A stretch of DNA of 63,969 nt, counting the filler, from Dirinaria sp. TL-2023a (Eukaryota), in NCBI GenBank assembly GCA_051941275.1. It is 3 parts of 3 records of this genome, joined end to end, with 100 filler letters (N's around TTAATTAATTAA, not from the genome) between each part and the next. Parts side by side here need not be neighbours in the genome. Positions count along the whole stretch, not along the records: positions 21,688 to 43,257 come from JAVEBF010000252.1; 2 more parts are not named here. The stretch is one strand, 5' to 3'. This document shows, one piece after another, positions 7,304-43,357 of the stretch. Below the pieces are notes generated by a model, which was given only the letters and a program-made list of their open reading frames with translations, had not been told where the DNA came from and did no database searches. Within the stretch, counting starts at the first letter, position 1; every line of letters begins with the position of its first letter. The position numbers were made by a program, and so were the translations under genes.

Positions 7304-8390
7304 TCATCTCACTATCACTCTGGCCACTGGTATCTCTTCGTTTTCTACCTCGACGTCTACCTCTTCCTCCTTGTTGAAGTTCTCCAGGAGGTGAGCGACT
7401 TCTGTCGCCATCGCATTCTCCGACTCTTCACTTTTATGCTCCACCCCATCGAATAATCCCTCCTCGAAGACTCCTTCCGCAATTTCATAGTCGCCTATGT
7501 ATTTCGCTATTGGCTTCAGGGTACTCTTGCGGAAATAAGATCCCGCACTGGCCAACATCTTTGAGCCGGGGCATTTACTTTTAATATCTCCGGTATCTCC
7601 ATATGCCATCATGCGCAGGACGCTCGTGACATAATGCCAGTATAGATATCGAATTCCTGGTCTGCCGTTACCCAGAAATTACCCAGAAATTGTAGCTCTT
7701 CTCCATCGTACGATCCGTAAGTTCGCTCAGGAGTTTCTGGGATTGGCTGGCTCATCAAGGCTGTGTCCAGTATCCGGAGTTTTAGTCGTTGAGGCGATCC
7801 TGGCGGCGTGTCGATAGGTACGATCACCAACTCTCCTCTATCTAATCTCTCTTCGAAAGACTTTGACATCAAAATACCATTTTTGAGATGCCAGATATGA
7901 GACTTCCCCGCTGCGAAGTCGCCTTTATCTCCCACTTGCCACGCTACATTTTCGTAGCCCATAAAAAAAGGTATTATGTGAGCGGCAATTCTCTCTCCTC
8001 CCACAGTCGACCAACGCTCTAGTATTGAACACCATTTCTCTTTAACTTTCTTAGGCCTTTCGCCTGGAGTTTGCACGATGGCCTTCCTTCGGGTGGAGCC
8101 TTGATAGAATTCGAGATCTCTCTTCCAGCTGTCATGCGGCTTTTGGTCTCCGACATGCAGTTTTGTAGCGTGGGATATTCTAAAGCTGTTTGTGATTTCT
8201 GCCGTACAGGCTTCCAGCCCCGCATTCTCTTTGCTTCCCCGTTTTGTTACCAGTCCTTCTCCTGACGGTCGAATCTGTCATGGACATCGCGGCCTTCTTG
8301 CTTCCTGCGCTTTCGATACAGTTCGTGAAGTTGCGACTACAGCTCCTCGTGACCTCATTCAATCGTCTTCGAATAATTTCAGTAACCCAT
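7304..8390 (-). pseudogene. Decayed fungal HNH-endonuclease (HNH_2-like) gene
   Basis: Motifs WCSIL...IAAHIIPF...NGILMSKSFEERLDRGELVIVP...LKLRILD...DGEELQF, then in a shifted frame GRPGIRYLYWHYVTSVLR leading into ORF 7304-7612. The shift comes from an 11-bp tandem duplication ACCCAGAAATT (7670-7680/7681-7691). Upstream there are in-frame stops at 8337-8339 and 8247-8249 and another frameshift near 8220. Confidence 0.75.
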
Positions 8391-21587: not shown

Positions 21588-21687
21588 NNNNNNNNNNNNN
21601 NNNNNNNNNNNNNNNNNNNNNNNNNNNNNNNTTAATTAATTAANNNNNNNNNNNNNNNNNNNNNNNNNNNNNNNNNNNNNNNNNNNN
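21588..21687. other. Assembly gap with artificial six-frame stop linker (N44-TTAATTAATTAA-N44)
   Basis: TTAATTAATTAA at 21632-21643 sits inside Ns, and the flanks are homopolymer-noisy, as expected of low-quality contig ends. Confidence 0.97.
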
Positions 21688-25631: not shown

Positions 25632-27327
25632 CTAGGCATCGGAATCGCGGTTTTCTTTGCGCGGCTTGTCACCTGTGTAAAACATCTACCGGCAACAGTC
25701 CGTTAGTATACCCGTGATTTAATATCTCATACTGGGGCAAACTCACAACCGGTAGACTGCCTGAAAAGCAAAACGCGGCGAGGACCCCGTACGTAATGGC
25801 CCAGGTGGTTTTTTCGTAGAGCAAGCCACTGATCAAAGGACCGATGACGGTTCCGGCCCCGAACGTGACATCGACCAAAGCGTAAGCTTCTGTGAACGCG
25901 CCGCTGTTCTCCGAGAGTTCGGGATTGTCCGCCTCCAGTCGTTCGACCGCAAAGGACATGTCCGAGACCAAGGATGTCAGGAACAAGTTGATCCCCATCC
26001 CTGCGATCCAAAAATGAAAATAAAGCGTCAGCAAAGATTGCCGTATCCCCAAATTGCCGTTGACAATGGTTCAAAGATGGAAAAAGGAAGTAATAATTAC
26101 CGATGAGAACCAAAAAAACGCACAGAAGGACCTTCCTGACTAAATCGGCATTTTTGACGATGCCTAGTAATGCTAGATTGGGTACAGCGAGTGTAAAGCC
26201 GAGCAGAGCGACCAGACGCCGTCCATAGCGGTCACTAAGAATGCCAAAGAGTGGGGTCATAAGCGACGGCACTGTTAACGTGAGGAATATCAACCCGGCG
26301 CCGCTCGTGTCCCAGTGGAACGTGCGTTGGACGAAGCGTGGTAAGACTGCGTCGAAGGAGGTGTGAAGTGTAGAATGGACGAAGGTGCTGTACAAAGCCG
26401 CCATTATCTGTGGAGACGCAAGTAAAGCTCTAGTTGTGGGGAACCATCTCTTAGCAGGAACCTTAGCCTTGCTAAAGCCATTTCCTAGTAGCGGCGAGAC
26501 TTCATCATGTTGCGTATTGTGGTGTGCTGTAGTTCTACCGTTTCTACTTTCTTCGACGTTGGGTGCGGTCGGATTTCCATTACCGTGCTTCGAGCCATTG
26601 CCTGCTTTTTGACTGTCCGACGACCATTGCCGTGCTCTTCTTTTATCGATAAGTAGCACTGCGGCGATAAGATCGATGGCGATGATGGCCAGGCAAATAG
26701 AAAAAACGGCGTAGTAACCCGCTTTCTGATATATAACGCCCGCTAGGACAGGCGCTACAAGTACACCGAGGTTGACTCCAGACAGGGCAAACCCGATCCA
26801 AGATCCAACTTCATCTCTTTCTACTGATTCAACCAGGAGCGCCAAAACTGTTGTGTAGACCACTCCGGCCGATATACCTTGTAAGCAACGTGCTATGACG
26901 AGGATATACGTAGCTTTCGCGAGCATGAACAACAAAGTGGCAGCCAGAGCGGCCATAAGCCCGACAACAAGAGGCACTTGGCGGAGCGGTGAATGTTGGG
27001 TAACCCACCCAGCAACTGGAGCACCTAGGACCATAAAGCAGCCGAACACAACAAAAAGTATGGTTATCCACGACTGCACCATGCTCGAAGGGACACCCGA
27101 CCTTTCAACGAGAGTGAAGGGAAGCAGAGGAACGATCTCACGATAGTCAGCTAAGGAGAACTCGACGACAAAGGAGGTTCTAGCTCTTCGACACTGACTA
27201 CGCTGTACAGGACGCCATCTGTGAAGGTAGCTATGAAGCTGGCCATTCCGATGAACCATTTGGATGACCGTAATCCCAAGAGTATTGGAGGTCGGCCAGA
27301 GCCATCTTGCGAACTTTTTCCTAGCAT
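25632..27327 (-). CDS. MFS transporter (vesicular-amine-transporter-like fungal subfamily), 4 exons
   Basis: PPILLGLRSSKWFI...ATFTDGVLYSV|IVPLLPFTLVERSG, IARCLQGISAGVV, FDAVLPRFVQRTFHW, GILSDRYGRR and GAFTEAYAL...GTVIGPLISG. Introns at ~27138-27198, ~26002-26100 and ~25688-25747. Ends in ...KENRDSDA-TAG at 25632. Confidence 0.9.
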
Positions 27328-27359
27328 AACGTCTATATGAGACACGATGAGACGATGAG

Positions 27360-27712
27360 ACGATGAGAAGAAAACCAAAGGTCAAGTCAAAAGACTGCGT
27401 CTGTACACTTGGTAGTGTAGAGTTGATCGAGTGTGGTGAAGGTAGAATGGGTGACCAGCGAACTTGACTACCGTTCGATCAAACGTTATCAGAGCATCGG
27501 TGAAGATGCTTCGGCAGTCCGACTGGATCCGATGATGATGATGATAATAAAAACCGAAGGTCAAGTCAAGATTTTGTGTTCCTACCCTCGGTGGCGTAGA
27601 GTCGATGGAGCGTGAGGAAGGTAGATTGGGTGGCCAGTGGCCGGCATTGCCGTTCAGGCAAATCTTGTCAGATTATCGGTCAGGTTGTTCCAGCAGCCCG
27701 ACTGGCTCCGAT
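27360..27712. repeat. Diverged ~179-bp tandem duplication upstream of the MFS gene
   Basis: AAAACC(A/G)AAGGTCAAGTCAA occurs at 27371 and 27550, and GACTGG(A/C)TCCGAT at 27521 and 27700. The offset stays at 179 bp with similarity throughout. Confidence 0.8.
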
Positions 27713-30336
27713 ACGTCCGGACTGATAGAAGATCACGCGGAAGTTGCATCATTACTGTCGTCTTCAAGGCGGGACCGGTTCGCATGCTGCAGTGTGGATC
27801 CCACACGCACAGTACTAAGGTGATGATGATAGGCTTCTGGCTTTGCAACTTCGAGAAGTCCAACAGCAGCACGATATGAGCACCCCTCGAATCACGTTGA
27901 TCGATTTACGCTTTACGCACACCTATTGCATCAACGAGCTTCTCCGCCAGGATCGAGTGCCGATGTGTCTGTGCCCGTCTACTCGTCACGACGTTCATTG
28001 ATCAATGAACGTCACTCTGTGGGTAAACGGTTTGGTTGATGATGGGATGTGGAATTGCCAACGAGGGATTTGTACCTGAAGTACCGTGCAGGTGATGACA
28101 ATATTTTGAGTTACGATGAGAAGGTACAATAATCTACATGGACTCGTCCCTACGATATGATGGTGTGAGCAGGTACATGGTCGAGGTACCTCAAGGCGGT
28201 CTATTTCCATGCCAAGAGTGTGAATTGTGAAGCCACTAAAGCTAATTAAGAGACGTTAATCCACATCGGGAAGATCTAGATCGGGGAAATGCGAGGACTA
28301 GTTCGTGAACGAGAGTAAGGTACTTACATAAGGTACTTAAGGTACCTTAAGGGAAGGGAATGGACTCGTACCTCCGTAGTAGCGAGTAGCGACCTAACAC
28401 TTCGGCAACTTTGCCTATATAGGTTTAGAGATTAGTTGCTTGTTTGCCGAGTGCGAATGACAATGGAAGGCACATCCCATCTGCATTATTAACATGCTAA
28501 CCCTACAAAATTTCGGACCCATCTGCTGTTCCATCATACATACAGGTAGACATCAACCTTCGTCATGGAACAGTCGACGTCCTGTGAGGTGGTTCTGTTC
28601 TGACCAGTCTTTGAGGTACGGGAGTGCCAATGCGACGGTATCACTGCAGGAGAAGCAACATGAACGTCAGCTCAACCGCGGGTTACCGGGTTCGTGGGAG
28701 GACATCGATGCCAAGCTACCGTGCGGGGGTTCGATGTTCTCCTATTACAAAGAAATCACGCCACCCGGAGCTGGTGACGGTATCCGGACCCCTCAGTAAA
28801 GTAAGGTATGGCTTTTATGGCAAATTGCCCCTCTGCCCACAGTTGGTCTACAAGCGTCCTGGGCAGTGGGTAAGGTAGTGGGCAATGAACACTTACTCCT
28901 TCAAGCAGTTCGAGAATTCAGAACGAGACGCCAAGAACGGCTTGGCAGCTGAATGAAGAGCTCCAAGCCCATATAGACAAAAGATGATCAGCAACAAAGG
29001 TGACTGATGGCTAATCAAGAACTAGCAAAATCACCGAGTACCGAAAAATCCATCGTGCTTGGGCGGTAAAGCTACTGAAGCATGGCCTAAAGTGGTCTCG
29101 GTCCGCGATTTAATGCAAAGCTAAAGGGTTCAGGCTGCATGCAGATCTGTAATGTAAGTATGGTGAGGCATGAGCTCATTAGGAACGGAGGAGTCGATCA
29201 TTGGAGCACGAAAAGCAAGTGTTAGGTATTTGCCCCATTCCCTTCCTCTCAACTTTCTCCGGAAAGTGTCTCGTTGTCGGTGTTGCAGCACCCAGTACTG
29301 TACTGATCCTTCTACGTATTTCACACTCTCGTCGAAATTTCTGCTAAAAGGTTTAGAGCGCTCTATGTATGGGCCCCTTCGCATGATGTCTTGCAGCAGC
29401 AAGTGTTTTCATCAATGTTGCCTGTACCTCAGCACCCATTGCTTTTTTAACTCCTGCTCTTAGGATTACTAGATGTAAGTAAGATAACTTCTTCTGAGTG
29501 TTCCCGCTGCTTCTCCCAGATTGGGATCTTTAGCTCCTTCTCATTTCGGATCTCCTCACTTTTGAGCAGCTATCGTTTTCTTCCGGCGTAACTAGCCTCA
29601 TTGTGTCCTGTCATCGGGCTCCGTCCTCTGCTTGCGTAGTGTCCAAGCCTCGGGCGCAGTGGGTTGTTTGTGCATGGCCGGTACGATTATAGCAGGATGA
29701 AAGTTTGCGCTAGACCGAGCTTACGCAGTATTTTCGCCGTCTCGACCCCTTTTCAAGTCAGAGTCCGTCTCTAACGCAGCAGATTAGTACGTAAGTATCT
29801 TATAAAACCTTATACGTTCCACAAGTTTCAGATTTTGACTGGAGCTCAACATAGGCGGACTCAGATCTACGCGATCGACAAGTTATCTCAAACAATGTAG
29901 ATTTGAACGTAGTCATAGATAATTTCGTGAATTTCTCATCCAAATTCGAGTAGTTTCAACCTTTGAAATGCCTTGTTGCATGTTCAGCACAATCAAACAC
30001 AGCAATTGGGTTTTTGAATAAACGAAAGAAACTATTTTACTCAGTTTGTATTATTCGTGAGAGTTGGGAAATCTTGTTGAGTGCAAAGACTATTGTACCG
30101 CCTAGGGGATTGATGGGTTTTGGTGGGGAATATAAGGACGTAGACTTCTGGGTTAGTACTGCAGAAGTAAGGAGCGTCTCTGGTACAGCTTTTTGGGCTC
30201 ACCAGTACCTTAGTAGTACATGAATATAGATAAGCAATCCTGTAGTGCCACGCAAGCCGGCATACCGAGAAAGGAGAGACTTGTCTGCAATCTTGATCAC
30301 CAGGGCATTAATATGAAGGGAGTGTGCAGTTTCTCT

Positions 30337-33300
30337 TTAGAAGTCACCGTTCTGGACTTCGTATCCCTGTTCATCTGGACGGCCCGGCGCGACAGTTGGC
30401 CGCCGCTGATGATGATCCTGATGGGCCGGGAATGCTGTAGTATAGAACTCGCTCCATCCGCCCATGCGTACGCGCACCAGGCCGTATTTCTCTGGGTCTT
30501 TGCTTGCCGCCTGCAAGGTTTGCAGGTCCGCGCAAGTCAAAGTGATGAGGTTACCTCCAACCCAGCCTGCGGCGTAGTCTTTGATGAACTGTTGCAGGTC
30601 TTCCAGCGGGAAGTCCTCAGGGAGATTCAAGTCGACTGGCGCCGCATCTGCGATGCCATACTCCACGGCATCCTGGTGATAACTCTTCATTACGCCGTAT
30701 ATGTTGCGGAAAGCTGGCTTTGGCGGCAGGTCTTGTGGTGAAGGGGCTGGAGATGTATCGGAAGCAACAGGCATGCCTTTGCGACGGCCGTCGGCCGAAG
30801 CCCCACACGCCTCTCCAACGCCCGTATAACCCTCGAACGTACCAGCGCCAATGGTCACCACGAACTCGAAATCTTGTCCGTATTTCTGCCTGATCCTTTC
30901 AAGCTTGGGGGCAAGCGCTGGATGGGGTTCGCGGATGACACTCTTACCAATCTCCACGATGCTGTCCATGAAATCAGCACCGATCTTCTGGAGCACGGCA
31001 TCAGCGGCACCACTAGCCCACTTGGGTAATGCCAATGCCGCCGTGCGAAGCTCTTTGTAGCGATCCGCGTGCTGCTCAGCTTCTGTTGCTGCCAACATAA
31101 GATCCTGGTAAGGCTCGATCATGCCAAATCCCCAATCATTGATCAAGCATAGAAGCAACTCGTCCAAGGTCGTGCATGCTGTCTTATCGTCATAAACTAG
31201 CTTCCAAATGGCGTAAAGCGAGTCTATAGTGTTCGAGGCGCCAGGGAACAGCGGCGCGATCATGTGGAAGCGCGCACCTCCATCAGTAAGATCACGCCCT
31301 TTCTCGATGCAGCCGTCTATCACTGTCGAGAGCAGCGGACTCGGACAGACGTCTGCCAGATTTCCATAGTGGTCCAGAATGTAACCGTAGCATTGAATCG
31401 TGAGCCATCTGAGTTGCTCTAGGAAGATTTTTTGTAACTCCTCGAACGATTTGATTGATCGCGCTAATGGCGAGCGGAACGAGGCCTTGAGACCTCTGAG
31501 ATGCTCCGACCCGGCAGCAGCGTACGTAGCTCCTTCATTGATGGTCTGCTCCAGGGCAAGGAGAGGCATGACATTGTTAAAAGCAAATTCCGTAGCCCCT
31601 GCCATCATGGGCTCGAAACAGCCATCGGCCGCATAGTCGCGAGACCGTCTAATTCCAACGTGATCGCTGGTGACTCCCGAGTCAAGAAGGCCTTTGCATA
31701 GCTTGTCATCGTTGAACAAACATGGCTGTGCACCACCCGAGAGCAGAGCCTTTGCTGCTTCCTCGATAATGCCAACGGGCGTTTGCTTGTTAAGGCGAAG
31801 CGATACGCTGGGTGCGCTGACCGGAATGCGCCTTGCTGATTTAAGGAAGAGCATGGTGACGGGGTTGCACCCATCCTGGGGCTCACCATCCATCGCCTTG
31901 TACCCTCCGATCGTGATCTGTTGGCCCCACTGATTGATGCCGCCACCTTGTGAAAAGTTTCCCCAGCCGCCGTTGATTGAGCCCGTGCCGCAGGTAATGT
32001 AATCGTGTATGAAAGAACGATCAATGAAGGCGTTCTCGCCAATCTTGACAAACAGACAATCAATGATTTCCTGTGCCCGATCTGTCGGAATTGGGTATTT
32101 TTCCAGGAATGGCCAAAGAATTTGATCGAGACGGCCAATCGACGTCAACTCTCCTACCAGGTGCAAGCAGCAGTGAAACGAATAGAGCAGCTGGACGGCA
32201 TCCTGAAAGCTCTGCGGAGCCTGATCAGCGAGGCGTCTCAGTCGATCAGATACATCAGCCATACTGTCAGCGTCATCTGCCTGGTTTTGCGTGCGAGCTT
32301 GAGCAGCGGAGTTGTCGGCAGCTGTTGCCCAATTACGCAAATAGCCTTGAACCCCTTTAAGAGACGTGATTGCGGATTTGTAGAAGGTAGCATGTGATGG
32401 GTCCTCGTGAAGCCGCTTCTCCAAGTCTGCAAGCATGTTCCCCAAGCCGTTGCGGACGAGATGGTCAAGATCAGGAATTATGTGGCCCATAGACGAAAAC
32501 TCATTGAGCTGCTTTGCCAACCAGAAGTTGAACACTTCTTCGTTACTCAGGTAAGGCATGACTTCTTTCCCTCGGCCGTATGTAAAGTCTGGAACCACGC
32601 CGACGATGAGCTCCTTGGGATGGATTCTCAAGAGTCCACATTTTTGGGCAACCTTTGAGTCGGGTGCGGACAGCAAGTTATTGAGGGTCTCAAAGTTAGC
32701 CATGGCTTTGCGTGTCGGTATAGGGATTGCTTCCATTTCCTTCTTCTTATCGTCGCTGCCAGCAAGATGGGGAAGGCGAGGAAAGTGGTCATTGTGAACC
32801 CATCCGTCACGCCAGTGGTTGAACGTCCTGTGTATCAAACTCAAGAGGCGTGGGGTTGGTCCATCGCCTTCTTTGTAACGTCCTTCGCCCATTGTGTGCA
32901 TGTAGTCCTGAAAATTGTAGAAGAGGTATCCGTTCGGGCTGCTCACTTTCCAATGCGGATGCTCGTACAAGTCGTCGCTGGCCTTCGCCGGCGAGACTCC
33001 GAGCTCCCTGGCTGCCGGCACATACCAGTACGATCCACCCACACCGGACATCATTTGCATCAACTTGTCTGCCGGATCGTCCTTTCTCTTGCCAAGAAGA
33101 TTCTGGAGAATGTCCTCAAAGCGTTGTTGTTCATTGCAAAGTGCGACAAACATGATTCCCTGTTCACGTCCTGAATGATTATGGACTCTGCCAAACGGCA
33201 ATGCTTGGCGAAGGATTTTGCGCTGATCACCATTGCTGTCACGAACGTTGGCACGATGTACGTGCCCACGTGTAGAGTGTTGAGAGAGGATAGACCCATC

Positions 33301-33897
33301 GGTTCTGCGGCCGACGATCTGGTCCTGGCTGTCGACGGTGTTCGACTTTATGGCTCCCCAGTCGAAAAGAAATCGCTGGGTGAAGGCAAAGGAAGAACCT
33401 TTGAAGTCTCCATTGATGAGGATGTCCTCTTGAAGGCTGACCGGATCGTTCGGATTGGTAATGCCGTCGTGGTATCGCCCTCCTATAATCCTCGAGTCCA
33501 GACGCTTGCCCATGACAACACAATCAATGTTTTTGGCCAGACCTTCCAAGCGCATCTTCGGTTCTTTGAGGAGCTCTTCAGCCGTGTTCTGGTCATGCGT
33601 CTTCAGGTAGAGGAGTACATCTCCACTCGTGTTCGTATACTGGTCGGTCCCATTCAGTACCTTCTCAGATATGGGAATGGTACGGTCATTCCACTTCCCC
33701 CATAGTTGCGGACTGAAACCAGCGAACAGTCCACATCGGGGCTGCTGCGAGTCAGCTGTGGCAGCAAGATCCCGAACAATGGTGATGAGACTATTGTACG
33801 TGCCCTCGTGATGATCTTTGAGGTCAATAGTCAAGAGTTGCCCGAAGAGAGAACGCGTCAACAAGCCGCGCTGGGCACCTTCTAGGATTTCGGTCAT
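30337..33897 (-). CDS. DyP-type heme peroxidase / glycyl radical enzyme fusion protein, intronless, 1186 aa
   Basis: Residues ~1-295 are DyP: GDVLLYLK, RYHDGITNP (Asp144), GSSFAFTQRF..DW, QDQIVGR, GHVHRAN (His212), KILRQALPFG (Arg230), GIMFVAL, GSYWYVP. Residues ~420-1170 are GRE: PKELIVG, GHIIPD, PQSFQDAVQ, SIGRLDQILWPF, QITIGG, PSVSLR, PCLFNDD, DGCFEP (Cys760/Glu762), SPLLSTVIDGCIEKGRD..DGGARF, GASNTIDSL.AI.KLVYD, GASADGR..G.P, LVRVRMGGWSEFY (Gly1147). Confidence 0.93.
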   Translation of the reverse strand: MTEILEGAQRGLLTRSLFGQLLTIDLKDHHEGTYNSLITIVRDLAATADSQQPRCGLFAGFSPQLWGKWNDRTIPISEKVLNGTDQYTNTSGDVLLYLKTHDQNTAEELLKEPKMRLEGLAKNIDCVVMGKRLDSRIIGGRYHDGITNPNDPVSLQEDILINGDFKGSSFAFTQRFLFDWGAIKSNTVDSQDQIVGRRTDGSILSQHSTRGHVHRANVRDSNGDQRKILRQALPFGRVHNHSGREQGIMFVALCNEQQRFEDILQNLLGKRKDDPADKLMQMMSGVGGSYWYVPAARELGVSPAKASDDLYEHPHWKVSSPNGYLFYNFQDYMHTMGEGRYKEGDGPTPRLLSLIHRTFNHWRDGWVHNDHFPRLPHLAGSDDKKKEMEAIPIPTRKAMANFETLNNLLSAPDSKVAQKCGLLRIHPKELIVGVVPDFTYGRGKEVMPYLSNEEVFNFWLAKQLNEFSSMGHIIPDLDHLVRNGLGNMLADLEKRLHEDPSHATFYKSAITSLKGVQGYLRNWATAADNSAAQARTQNQADDADSMADVSDRLRRLADQAPQSFQDAVQLLYSFHCCLHLVGELTSIGRLDQILWPFLEKYPIPTDRAQEIIDCLFVKIGENAFIDRSFIHDYITCGTGSINGGWGNFSQGGGINQWGQQITIGGYKAMDGEPQDGCNPVTMLFLKSARRIPVSAPSVSLRLNKQTPVGIIEEAAKALLSGGAQPCLFNDDKLCKGLLDSGVTSDHVGIRRSRDYAADGCFEPMMAGATEFAFNNVMPLLALEQTINEGATYAAAGSEHLRGLKASFRSPLARSIKSFEELQKIFLEQLRWLTIQCYGYILDHYGNLADVCPSPLLSTVIDGCIEKGRDLTDGGARFHMIAPLFPGASNTIDSLYAIWKLVYDDKTACTTLDELLLCLINDWGFGMIEPYQDLMLAATEAEQHADRYKELRTAALALPKWASGAADAVLQKIGADFMDSIVEIGKSVIREPHPALAPKLERIRQKYGQDFEFVVTIGAGTFEGYTGVGEACGASADGRRKGMPVASDTSPAPSPQDLPPKPAFRNIYGVMKSYHQDAVEYGIADAAPVDLNLPEDFPLEDLQQFIKDYAAGWVGGNLITLTCADLQTLQAASKDPEKYGLVRVRMGGWSEFYTTAFPAHQDHHQRRPTVAPGRPDEQGYEVQNGDF

Positions 33898-34560
33898 CTT
33901 CGCTTGATTGATGTAAAAAGTTTGATCTGATGAGTGAAGACAGCCTTGATACGTTCATGCAAAGACTGTTCTCTCCCTCCATCGCGAGCAAAGGCAGGGT
34001 AGTATAAAAAGTAGCAGGTGTATGACACAACAGCTAGCCGGCGATAACGAGTCGCATATCAAAACCTTCCCCGCAACTGCACAGCTCGTTTCTCGGATGC
34101 ATTCGGGGTGAAGATATTCAGACTCGAGTGCGCATAATGAGAGAACCACTCAACGGCAGTATGGAAGAGCGGGGAATGACCCATCGCAACATCAATGAGC
34201 TTTCTCGTCCGAATGCAGCGTGACGCAGTCAGTTGAAGCGCACATGCAGGCTTGAAGATTGAGCACACCTCGAATGGGGAAAGGCAGCCGATCATTATGG
34301 GCGGCAAGAGCCTGATATGCATAGAATGGTTTTGGATAAACGAGATGAGAGAAAAAAGGCCAAAGACAGGGCCAGATTCAATGACCGTGCCATTTAAACT
34401 TTTTGAACAACTACAGGCTGTGAAACTACACCTATTGATCAAGTTGTCATGATGCTAACAACGCTCAGATTATACTGCGGGTCCAGTGACTCGGCTCAAC
34501 TTCTTCCCCAGATGGTGAACAACAGGACGTCGCCTGCGGATCTAACTTTGGGCAGCCGAC

Positions 34561-36560
34561 CTACAAGCTACGTCGACTCACACGTATCGGTAAGCCATTT
34601 TTAGGCCTCAGAGTAAAGCTTGGAAGGAATTCCATTTTGAAGCCCGGCTCAAGGCTAAGATCATATCGTCGGATAACCGTAGCAATCGCGATCGTCATTT
34701 CGAGCATTGCGAGCCCTTGCCCTAGAATCAAGAGGTGTTAGATTGCAGCTTCGCGATGTCTGATATGGTAACAAACCGATGCAATTTCTTGGGCCCCATG
34801 AGAAAGGGAAATAAGATCCCTTGGTCTTCGTATGGCCAGAGCCGCCAGACCGCCACCGTTCCGGATCAAAGTCATCGGCATCTTCCCATAGAGTGGGATC
34901 TCGATGCACTATAATCTCGTGAGATTCCTCAATTCATGACATTGAAATGAACGTGCAGGAATGGGATAGGCTCACCGGCAGGATTCCATAAAGCTAAGGT
35001 AGTATCTGCAGGGAGCGTCGTGCCGCACACTGTTGTATTGACCGCGCAGGTTCGGAAGCTTCCGAATCCTGTCGAGTGCACTCTCAGAGTCTCTTTGACG
35101 ACCATGTTCAAATACGGAAGCTTGGTCTGATCGATAGAAGCAATGGAATCATTGTCAGGTATACTTGCATCGATCTCTGCACGCAATCGAGCCAGGATTT
35201 CTGGGTTGCGGAGCTGCATCCCGTAGAGCTTGAGTCAGCTCTCACGATTCCATCTCCCTCAGCTAGTATGAGGCGGTCTTACCACTTCCCAAAGTAGGAA
35301 TGACATGGTGTGTGCAGTCGGGTCTGCTCCGGCCACCAGGAATGCCACTATTGATCCACACATTTGGCTCAGCAAACGATCACCAGTGAGGTCCAGCCTT
35401 CCTTTTCAATCGAACGTACCGTAATTGTCCACAAGCTCTTTCGAACTAAAGGAATAGCTTCCGTTGGACTCCTTCTGCCTGTCACAAGTCATAAGCGTCT
35501 TGGTACTCAGTGATTGCGGCGCCCTTACTTAGCCAGGATCTCAAATATTTTTTTGGGAATTTTGTTGGGTTTCTCCTGGGATGCATCGGCCCCATGGCGG
35601 ACATTCTCTACCGCTTTCTCTGCCATAAGTCTCAACTCTGCGACAGCACGATGCATCTCTCTCGTCTTTCTCAGAATGGGGAACTTTGCTCTCCAAGGAA
35701 AAAGCCCGCATTTCATGAGTTCTGGCAACACTATGTCGAAGAGCTGCATTATGCGACAGTCCGAGCCATGAGCAAGTGCGTGAAAGTCGACACCATATGC
35801 AATATCCCCAATGAAGTCAAGCGTAAGAAGGACGTGAAGTGAGGAGAAGTCAACAACGGTCTTATCTCTTGCAGCAATGTCAAGATATTCCACACAGTGC
35901 TGTGGATCATGGACAAACATCAGCAGCGATGCGATTGTGTTTAAACCCTTGCTGCTACTTACGTTTAGATGTTTTGCAAAGCAAGCGTACTGACCCTCGA
36001 TGATATTAGGTTGAAAAGCTGGTGCAAGACGCTTTCTTTGTATCCGCCATTTATCGTGATTTGTCTGTACGAACAAGGCGTCGCCACTCAGAGGCCGGAA
36101 CCCATCGTATTGAGTTGCGGCCTTCTGCCAATTCGAGTTTGAGATGGTGGTAATCATATCTGGATCGCCAATATAGATGACTCGTGAGAAAGGGCCGTTC
36201 CACTTTCATAGTTTAAGCCAATGCTGATCGTAGTTTGTGTGGAGATACTGACGGTCTGGAAGACGTGTCCGTATTCACGATTCCATTGCAACCACTACAA
36301 GCTGTTAGGCTGATTTTGACACAGGGAATATCTTGACTGACCTTTTCATGCACATTATCAGCCATCGTCTGGTCGAGGTTGCCGGTCCAGAAATTTTTCA
36401 CCGGCGGACCAGGGAATTCATAGCGAGCCCGAATATAGACGTACATGAAGCGGACAACCATAATCATTAACAATGCAATAATTGTCATGGCAAGGAATGA
36501 GACCTGGACGACGTTGAGACCACCCAGGGTCAGGGGCAAAGGAGAAGCTAGTTTCGTCAT
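34561..36560 (-). CDS. Cytochrome P450, 9 exons, atypical I-helix (AGADPT)
   Basis: N-terminal TM anchor with FPGPP, KWRIQRKRLAPAF, I-helix YVAFLVAGADPTAHTMSF (exon ~35283-35348), KETLR (ExxR), HRDP..W.DADDFDPERW, heme motif FPFSWGPRNCIG|QGLA, and stop TAG at 34561. Eight GT-AG introns were traced in frame. Confidence 0.93.
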
Positions 36561-40254: not shown

Positions 40255-41184
40255 ATGGAGCCTACCAAGTCAAAGCGGCCGGTCCTTTTCTTTGACATTG
40301 ACAACTGTGTACGTGAAAACACGACTCCTGCCGTTTTGCAGAAAACCACTGACCCCTAGTGCAGCTCTACCCCAAAAGTCTGTGCCCAGAAACCATTACG
40401 ATTGCTGCACTTGCTGACATCGTTGGCACAGGCAATAATATAAATGAGATGATGGTAGAGTTGATCAACGATTATTTCGCCAGACACCTCGAACTGTCTG
40501 CCGAAGATGCGAAGATGTTGCATCAGAAATATTACAAGGATTACGGACTTGCCATCACCGGCCTTGCTCTGCATCACAAGATAGCTCCACTAGAGTTCAA
40601 TAGAGAAGTCGACGATGCCCTGCCTCTCGATGACATTATCAGCTTCAATCCTCAATTGAGACAACTTCTCGCAGACATTGACAAAGCCAAGGTCAAAATG
40701 TGGCTATTTACCAATGCATACATCACGCACGCGCAGAGGGTAGTCCGACTGCTTGGTATTGAAGACATGTTCGAGGGTATTACATACTGCGATTACAGCA
40801 GGGTCCCGATTCGATCGAAGCCCCACACGGAAATGTACGAGAAGGCCGAGTTCGAGGCCGGCGCGTCTTCCGTTGACGGTTGCTTCTTTGTTGGTAAGCG
40901 ACTCAAGTATTTTTCAAGACACACAGCGGTGCTGCTACATTTGAACTTTGATTAGGCTGACAAACCTGGGACTAGATGATTCGTACCTGAACTGTCACCA
41001 TGCGCAGGAGCGAGGTTGGACGGCTGCTCATATCATAGAGCAGACAGAAACGGAACCGGAGGTCAAAGCTTCCAAGTACCAAATAAGAGACTTGGAAGAG
41101 CTCCGGGGGATTTTCCCACAATTCTTCAAGGATCGCAGTACCGGCAGTGCTGTGGCTGGTTCCGCTAGGTCGTCTCAGCTGTGA
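40255..41184 (+). CDS. SDT1: HAD-family pyrimidine 5'-nucleotidase (Sdt1/Phm8-like), 4 exons
   Basis: RPVLFFDIDNC|LYPK, HQKYYKDYGLA, EFNREVDDALPLD, WLFTNAYITHA, FEGITYCDY, KPH.EMY, FFV|DDSYLN and GWTAAH. Confidence 0.9.
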
Positions 41185-43257: not shown

Positions 43258-43357
43258 NNNNNNNNNNNNNNNNNNNNNNNNNNNNNNNNNNNNNNNNNNN
43301 NTTAATTAATTAANNNNNNNNNNNNNNNNNNNNNNNNNNNNNNNNNNNNNNNNNNNN
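43258..43357. other. Assembly gap with artificial six-frame stop linker (N44-TTAATTAATTAA-N44)
   Basis: Same structure as the first gap, with the linker at 43302-43313. Confidence 0.97.

Follow-up and report, generated by a model that had tools for sequence, protein, structure and literature searches.

The DyP-GRE fusion gene

The window analysed here is a stretch of 63,969 nucleotides from Dirinaria sp. TL-2023a (assembly GCA_051941275.1). It contains a gene for a protein of 1186 residues, termed P0001, in which an N-terminal dye-decolorizing peroxidase (DyP) domain and a C-terminal glycyl radical enzyme (GRE) fold are joined in one chain. P0001 is a member of a known, uncharacterised family of fusions between DyP and pyruvate formate-lyase (PFL)-like domains (DyP subclass P2), and this family looks independent of the radical-SAM (S-adenosylmethionine) activases that serve other GREs. 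The gene is a single open reading frame (ORF) with no internal stop and no intron. The region 30421-33480, to which an earlier note on this DNA refers, lies inside this ORF, and the residue numbers given there for D144, H212, C760 and G1147 are correct. The features of the gene are as follows; conservation here and below refers to 37 aligned sequences that are 33-89% identical to P0001.

30337..33897, minus strand: DyP-GRE fusion gene encoding P0001, 1186 residues, stop codon included (ORF list and translation)
32995..33894, minus strand: DyP heme peroxidase domain, class P (type B), residues 2-301 (structure comparison, Pfam and NCBIfam)
33466..33468, minus strand: D144, distal Asp in the motif GxxDG (33 of the 37 sequences have Asp, 4 have Glu)
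33262..33264, minus strand: H212, proximal heme ligand (invariant, 37/37; the nearby H214 varies)
33208..33210, minus strand: R230, distal Arg (invariant, 37/37)
32878..32994, minus strand: family-specific connector HPHW...YLFYNFQDYMH, residues 302-340 (Y327, N328, Y332 and M336 invariant)
30382..32877, minus strand: complete GRE fold, residues 341-1172 (VIA-align, Foldseek and Pfam)
31927..31950, minus strand: glycine-rich loop QGGGINQW specific to the family, residues 650-657 (inside a segment that glycerol dehydratase lacks)
31612..31620, minus strand: Cys loop C760-F761-E762 in the motif DGC[FY]EP (D758, G759, C760, E762 and P763 invariant, 37/37)
30457..30459, minus strand: G1147, putative glycyl-radical position in R-V-R-M-G-G-W (R1142, R1144, G1146, G1147, W1148 and E1150 invariant, 37/37)

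One study sequenced RNA from a lichen sample in four runs, and a 4012-nt contig from that sample follows positions 30054-34040 collinearly and unbroken by joints, at about 95% identity. The contig is what one would expect of an unspliced transcript made from the orthologous gene of a related fungus, though finding a sequence in an RNA library does not by itself show that it is transcribed. The RNA runs X3 and X4 cover the gene in part, and the uncovered parts carry no inference.

The DyP peroxidase domain

Residues 2-301 superpose on the class P (type B) peroxidases YfeX, KpDyP, VcDyP and DtpB with a VIA-align Z of 32, a root-mean-square deviation (rmsd) of 2.4-2.5 Å and 286-290 aligned residues. 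Pfam Dyp_perox_C matches residues 142-296 (7e-25), and the score for NCBIfam Dyp_perox_fam (TIGR01413), 113.4, exceeds the cut-off of 100.5. P0001 has the two ferredoxin-like domains of the DyP fold, which it has in common with class P enzymes including DypB (Z 30-32), and the proximal His, distal Asp (GxxDG) and distal Arg of that class are likewise present. The N-terminal part of P0001 is a complete class P/B DyP, for which heme b binding and peroxidase activity are predicted from sequence and model. YfeX-type DyPs are stand-alone proteins of about 300 residues or encapsulin cargo, whereas the DyP domain of P0001 is fused; it is 18-24% identical to them.

The GRE domain

The GRE part aligns over about 700 residues with solved GRE structures (VIA-align Z about 31, rmsd 2.8-3.1 Å), and residues 340/341 to 1171 of the model correspond to residues 2/3 to 787/793 of the glycerol and 1,2-propanediol dehydratase chains. 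Foldseek finds the choline TMA-lyase CutC (E = 1.6e-33), and Pfam PFL-like (PF02901) matches residues 463-981 (2.7e-87); the ten-stranded barrel of the PFL-like fold is present. The best sequence match of P0001 among solved structures is the B12-independent glycerol dehydratase 1r8w (1.9e-40). In the HMMER alignment with this enzyme, DGCFEP of P0001 stands opposite IGCVEP, so that C760 corresponds to the Cys of GCVE, and RMGGWSEF stands opposite RVAGYSAQF. C760, on the Cys loop, is presumed to be the thiyl radical site. E762 corresponds to the general base of the eliminase subclass and completes its Cys-x-Glu motif, and G1147 is the C-terminal Gly of an RVxG[FWY] loop, where the alignment points to a putative glycyl radical. 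The earlier note held that both catalytic sets are retained, and the alignment bears this out: H212, R230, C760, E762 and G1147 do not vary, and position 144 varies between Asp and Glu.

P0001 is related to the GRE 1,2-eliminases, namely 1r8w, 1,2-propanediol dehydratase (9rcp, 5i2g), CutC (5fau) and PflD/YbiW, with which it has in common the whole GRE fold, the Cys-x-Glu loop and the C-terminal Gly loop. It is only 19-24% identical to them, and its DyP domain at the N-terminus and its loop QGGGINQW have no counterpart in them. The 1,2-eliminases are activase-dependent enzymes from anaerobes. PFL proper has an adjacent Cys-Cys pair at the active site; P0001 has a single Cys in DGCFEP, and TIGR01255 is not among its matches. 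All NCBIfam GRE equivalogs score far under their cut-offs, the best being the PFL2-3 subfamily TIGR01774 (185.7 versus 678.2), with PRK09983 at 138.9 versus 1109. The Pfam Gly_radical score of P0001, 17.2, is under the cut-off of 22.2.

The AlphaFold2 model, built from the 37-sequence alignment, has a mean predicted local distance difference test (pLDDT) value of 83.9 and a predicted TM-score (pTM) of 0.88, and this whole-chain pTM suggests that the two domains would be held in a fixed arrangement. In the QGGGINQW loop, Q650, G651, Q656 and W657 are invariant, and at least 90% of the sequences share G653, I654 and N655; the region is gapped against 1r8w, and pLDDT is below 50 for residues 638-654. 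A second family-specific element, the HCCLH motif (residues 575-579, at about 32161-32175), lies on a GRE helix and has no counterpart at the aligned position of glycerol dehydratase. H575, C577 and H579 each recur in at least 90% of the sequences and C576 is variable; the motif could be a metal or redox site.

The connector

The segment between the domains had been described in the earlier note as an aromatic linker of about 120 residues. Its aromatic richness is upheld: in residues 300-462, six of the 17 invariant positions are Trp, Tyr or Phe (Y327, Y332, F359, W362, W366 and Y449), compared with 12 of the 125 invariant positions in the rest of the chain (Fisher p = 0.009). Its length is not. 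The GRE fold starts at about residue 340, so most of the supposed linker consists of the N-terminal GRE helices, which hold the invariant F359, W362 and W366, and the connector itself extends only over residues 302-340 or so. Under a fifth of the listed DyP and GRE structure rows span these residues. Residues 300-462 match the catalytic domains in conservation: mean identity in the 37-sequence alignment is 0.49 for this segment, 0.45 for the DyP domain and 0.56 for the GRE domain. An iron-sulfur or radical-SAM module hidden within residues 300-462 was considered and ruled out, since the segment lacks a conserved Cys and its part from residue 340 onward superposes on the N-terminus of the GRE fold.

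The fusion family and its distribution

Zamocky et al. (2016; PMC5041501) described a DyP-B/PFL fusion in Chaetomium and traced it to horizontal transfer from proteobacteria. According to the same paper, the Chaetomium genome encodes elsewhere a 'putative PFL activase' with 81% identity to CHGG_03160, and the Chaetomium cochliodes orthologue is induced 3-fold by H2O2 and 18.5-fold by peracetic acid, making it the most peroxide-induced gene among those tested (PMC5041501). In the 2022 DyP survey of the Sugano-Yoshida group, the proteins with an N-terminal DyP and a C-terminal PFL-like domain in one chain are named subclass P2 and called unexplored, and the DyP domain is proposed to guard the PFL domain and its activase from H2O2 (PMC9719856). 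P0001 matches the definition given there. The Xylaria grammica gene g1956 is another such fusion (PMC8469222). P0001 has the architecture of the published DyP-PFL (P2) fusions without structural difference, and is a new member of their family from a lichen-type fungus. The passages that deal with these fusions treat the family as hypothetical or unexplored and assume a PFL activase; absence of an activase is not raised in those passages. In the openly accessible literature (subscription-only papers being outside the scope), no paper was found that links the DyP heme with GRE activation.

Among the listed homologues of P0001, the closest are from lichen-forming fungi, namely Psora testacea (89%) and metagenome-assembled genomes (MAGs) of Teloschistaceae (80-85%). 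These are followed by Sordariomycetes and Dothideomycetes, including Chaetomium, Fusarium and Xylariales (54-62%), and by Betaproteobacteria (55-58%). Both Pfam domains are present in 114 of the 120 listed homologues, and the other six are short. When the search was made with residues 302-1186, which leave out the DyP domain, the high-scoring full-length relatives were again longer, DyP-bearing proteins, and DyP and PFL-like domains occurred together in 14 of 21 proteins scanned, picked from 150 listed; two of the 14 are no more than 28-30% identical.

A second, very distant DyP-GRE set with 28-30% identity carries the motifs AGCWE and RVGGWNS (among P0165, P0166, P0138, P0145 and P0146), and the same protein group includes fusion relatives with the eukaryote-type extra domains C2, C-type lectin and DUF2278. 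The distant fusions and those with extra domains imply that the pairing of DyP and GRE is older and wider than the fungal and proteobacterial clade. The pairing is strict and old.

In a quick maximum-likelihood tree, 11 fungal sequences form one clade (SH-aLRT 99) beside Paraburkholderia, inside a group of Betaproteobacteria. This agrees with the published horizontal transfer, the ascomycetes having gained the fusion from Burkholderiales-like bacteria. A scan of one genome per species yielded 42 bacterial fusion loci, from Burkholderiales, Pseudomonas, Myxococcota, Bacteroidota, Chloroflexota, Gemmatimonadota, Acidobacteriota and others. Many of the carriers belong to genera associated with fungi or chitin, namely Collimonas, Janthinobacterium, Andreprevotia, Chitinilyticum and Lysobacter; such carriers would fit a route of transfer from bacterium to fungus.

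Activase genes in the window and in bacterial carriers

The earlier note found no activase gene in the window, and all searches made here agree. None of the 237 stop-to-stop frames of at least 75 residues in the window has a Radical_SAM match, and none of its seven six-frame CxxxCxxC matches lies in a radical-SAM context. A PflA hidden Markov model (HMM) run over the 1640 frames of at least 25 residues, and tblastn with five activase-type proteins, gave nothing better than E = 0.3. This absence is uninformative alone, because the window is only 64 kb from a fungal genome, in three joined contigs. The N44-TTAATTAATTAA-N44 spacers stand at 21588-21687 and 43258-43357 and, as the contigs are separate, genes past the spacers are not neighbours of the fusion gene. 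The note's proposal of a GRE without a cognate activase therefore loses its original basis and gains another from the bacterial carriers, in which the search for activase homologues that the note had suggested was run.

No PflA-HMM match (E ≤ 1e-3) was found near the fusion gene at any of the 42 bacterial loci, with flanks of up to 10 kb; flanks of at least 3 kb on both sides were available at 33 of them. A cognate radical-SAM activase adjacent to the fusion is accordingly seen neither in these relatives nor in the window. Neighbour clustering revealed no conserved neighbour gene across the 42 loci. Recurring neighbour clusters proved to be shadow ORFs inside the fusion gene, and the largest sets of true neighbours are generic, namely ABC ATPase (seven loci), enoyl-CoA hydratase (six) and phospholipase C (six). 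The CxxxCxxC strings in the window and the 42 loci are chance strings in shadow frames, except for those of loci L021 and L022, which belong to a MiaB-type methylthiotransferase (Radical_SAM, UPF0004 and TRAM) and not to an activase.

At the level of whole genomes, a PflA/PFLE-class activase is absent from 26 of 30 fusion-bearing bacterial genomes (TIGR02494 ≤ 43 bits). TIGR02494 reaches at least 125 bits in only four (G005, G012, G016 and G029), where the hits are PFLA equivalogs (283-297 bits), and in all three of these that were checked (G005, G016 and G029) PflA stands beside a canonical PflB with AdhE or Ack-Pta. A second profile, derived from 13 activases of the sister clades, finds the same four of the 30 genomes and nothing else above 40 bits. 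The best weak TIGR02494 hits in 13 of the 26 genomes (G001-G004, G006, G007, G009, G010, G013-G015, G018 and G024) are NrdG2 (G001, G006 and G018, in the last beside NrdD), an AmmeMemoRadiSam enzyme (G003, G014 and G015), RnfB/NapH-type ferredoxins and one TrsS-like enzyme. G011 and G026 have no TIGR02494 hit at all. One genome, G019 (locus L020), is unpublished; leaving it out gives 25 of 29 genomes and none of 41 loci.

Two complete genomes were inventoried. In G002, the 12 Radical_SAM hits are MoaA, MiaB, RimO, HemW, HemN, LipA, BioB, RlmN, QueE, PqqE, a GDL-peptide maturase and a PA0069-family protein, and in G004 none of the 18 annotated Radical_SAM hits (of 22) is activase-like. PA0069/Rv2578c-family radical-SAM proteins (L090 in G002; L084 and L100 in G004) are the only uncharacterised radical-SAM family common to both.

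Activase genes beside unfused relatives

The highest-scoring unfused full-length relatives of the GRE part are metagenomic 'DGCWE' GREs of two types, represented by P0154 (RVRMGGW) and P0161 (RVGGW). They have in common with P0001 the D-G-C-aromatic-E and GGW motifs and a weak Gly_radical score, and differ from it in lacking a DyP domain. A metagenome scan with seven unfused GREs gave 80 loci, of which 44 contain an activase-like ORF. At the 19 loci most similar to the fusion GRE domain, a same-strand radical-SAM activase is directly adjacent in 17; in the two exceptions, the upstream sequence is 30 nt or less. The contrast between 17 of 19 unfused and none of 42 fused loci is strong (Fisher p = 3e-13), although the loci are not phylogenetically independent. 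Relative to the GRE gene, the activase gene is on the upstream side in loci of the P0161 type and on the downstream side in those of the P0154 type.

These relatives also bear on the weak Gly_radical score of P0001. Activase-linked unfused sisters likewise have no match at E ≤ 1e-4, so that the weak score does not signify loss, and a decayed Gly domain was rejected as its explanation.

Proposed peroxide priming and the alternatives

The lack of a PflA/PFLE-class activase in most bacterial carriers, and beside every bacterial fusion, means that activase independence is well supported for the bacterial members. It is probable for the fungal members, because these are nested among the bacterial ones and keep every motif. 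We read P0001 as an enzyme with the GRE fold and the Cys-x-Glu motif of the 1,2-eliminases that works without a radical-SAM activase of its own and receives its radical by peroxide priming; to this best reading we give a little less than an even chance. H2O2 or an organic peroxide would react at the DyP heme (H212, D144 and R230) to give Compound I. The oxidising equivalent would then hop through aromatic residues, as the earlier note envisaged, namely conserved Tyr and Trp in the connector and in the N-terminal helices of the GRE domain as well as W1148, to the GRE core. It would end as a thiyl radical at C760, with G1147 as its partner or store, and the C760 radical would start eliminase-type catalysis with E762 as the base. 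We infer every step of this radical generation, transfer and chemistry.

In favour of peroxide priming, the catalytic residues of both complete domains are invariant across the 37 sequences, down to 33% identity, apart from the exchange of Asp for Glu at D144. It is further favoured by the strict pairing of the domains, the lack of an activase beside the fusion and in most carrier genomes, the contrast with the unfused loci, the aromatic enrichment among the invariant positions of residues 300-462, the pTM of the whole chain and the peroxide induction of the Chaetomium cochliodes orthologue. Extended to the whole family, the reading would make it an oxygen-compatible, activase-free branch of the GREs in which the fused heme peroxidase replaced the radical-SAM activase as radical generator; this we put forward with slightly less confidence. 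In the P0161 type, the slot immediately before the GRE gene, filled by the DyP domain in the fusion, is occupied by the activase gene. Two known systems may serve as analogies. In prostaglandin H synthase and linoleate diol synthase, a heme peroxidase site primes a protein radical for a second active site; in prostaglandin H synthase the radical is that of Tyr385. Likewise, class I ribonucleotide reductase uses a metallocofactor in place of the radical-SAM activase of class III for the same thiyl chemistry. The folds of prostaglandin H synthase and ribonucleotide reductase, or at least their radical generators, are unrelated to those of P0001.

Several points weigh against peroxide priming. 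O2 destroys glycyl radicals, and the fusion carriers are presumably, judging by their names, mostly aerobes; a stored Gly radical would therefore need special protection, or the resting radical would have to lie elsewhere, and such storage in aerobes is chemically awkward. The Tyr/Trp path from heme to Gly or Cys is conjectural, and the Gly loop (residues 1145-1158) has pLDDT below 50 in the AlphaFold2 model. One 860-residue representative, P0135, possibly a fragment, has the fusion-type motifs without a DyP domain. The nearest unfused relatives are 24-29% identical to the fusion GRE, and their sister status reflects search rank rather than a rooted tree. Many of the 30 carrier genomes are MAGs or drafts. 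Cross-activation is possible in the four carriers with PflA and in the at least three with NrdG, and a very divergent or non-homologous activator would be missed by the HMMs, a PA0069-family protein being present in both complete genomes. Peroxide induction suits a detoxifying or shielding role equally well. The 'putative PFL activase' reported for Chaetomium (PMC5041501) also counts against it, the present genome searches having covered bacterial carriers.

The GRE might instead be conventional, activase-dependent and sensitive to O2 and peroxide, with the DyP domain removing H2O2 in its vicinity and the activase encoded elsewhere in the genome. This shield model, the alternative raised in the earlier note, has been proposed in print for subclass P2 (PMC9719856), and it accords with the putative PFL activase and the peroxide-induced gene of Chaetomium (PMC5041501) and with PflA in four of the 30 bacterial carriers. 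Yet neither of two profiles finds a PflA/PFLE-class gene in 26 of those carriers, none of the 12 radical-SAM genes in one complete genome is activase-like, and PflA adjoins PflB wherever this was checked (three of the four genomes). The idea of a shield is weakened because there is no activase present to shield, and a mere shield needs no fusion and connector strictly conserved down to 28-33% identity; we judge it very improbable. An activator of another kind, either non-homologous or very divergent, such as an uncharacterised radical-SAM family or a promiscuous NrdG, would leave the DyP domain a protective or regulatory role. HMMs detect only lookalikes of known activases, a PA0069-family protein occurs in both complete genomes inventoried, and NrdG2 is found in at least three carriers, all of which leave room for such an activator. 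The 42 loci have no conserved neighbour, NrdG is confined to a minority of the genomes and the PA0069 family is, we assume, widespread in genomes without the fusion, which together make this explanation decidedly unlikely.

It is also conceivable that no radical passes between the domains. Each might carry out its own reaction, whether in sequence or independently of the other, or the GRE fold might act as a non-radical Cys/Glu catalyst or as a substrate-binding module for the peroxidase. Gene fusions often mark neighbours in a pathway, and the Gly_radical score under the Pfam cut-off, the poorly predicted Gly loop and the family-specific QGGGINQW loop and HCCLH motif would all be understandable in such a protein. 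However, the full GRE fold is kept, and the weak Gly_radical score is common to unfused sisters whose genes adjoin activases. All 37 sequences keep G1146-G1147-W1148 and D-G-C-x-E-P unchanged, a constancy difficult to account for if there is no radical dyad. We regard this alternative as unlikely, and peroxide priming as the reading to be preferred.

Other genes of the window

The gene content of the window is fungal, with a Fungal_trans factor, SEN1, V-ATPase subunit E and a P4-ATPase, as well as intron-split P450 and RSN1-type genes. The fusion gene lies on a 21.5-kb contig, with the following genes in its surroundings:

25730-27478 and 34664-36205, both minus strand: MFS transporter and intron-split cytochrome P450, flanking the fusion gene
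40353-40952, plus strand: HAD hydrolase

Together with the fusion gene, the MFS transporter, P450 and HAD hydrolase could form a small metabolic cluster; none of the three is conserved beside the bacterial fusions. At about 23238 on the plus strand, 11 consecutive Cys codons in one frame represent a short trinucleotide repeat in a non-coding stretch. On the first contig, and unrelated to the fusion gene, a 222-residue ORF at 7612-8277 on the minus strand has a weak match to HNH_2 endonuclease (3.8e-06).

Significance

To our knowledge, GRE chemistry has gone hand in hand with strictly anaerobic life and with a radical-SAM activase of its own. It is thus unusual to meet a branch of the GREs in Burkholderiales, myxobacteria, Bacteroidota, ascomycetes and lichen fungi, organisms that by name look mostly aerobic, with a heme peroxidase attached and no activase beside it. 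The fusion itself and the idea of a shield are already in print, and what is new here is the comparative evidence for the absence of an activase. The family would represent either a new route of radical installation or an unexpected non-radical use of the GRE scaffold. If the DyP domain does act as the radical generator, the strong peroxide induction in Chaetomium would be explained, and the fusions would be oxygen-tolerant radical catalysts cleaving C-O, C-N or C-S bonds, with a new switch for GRE chemistry in aerobic bacteria, fungi and lichens.

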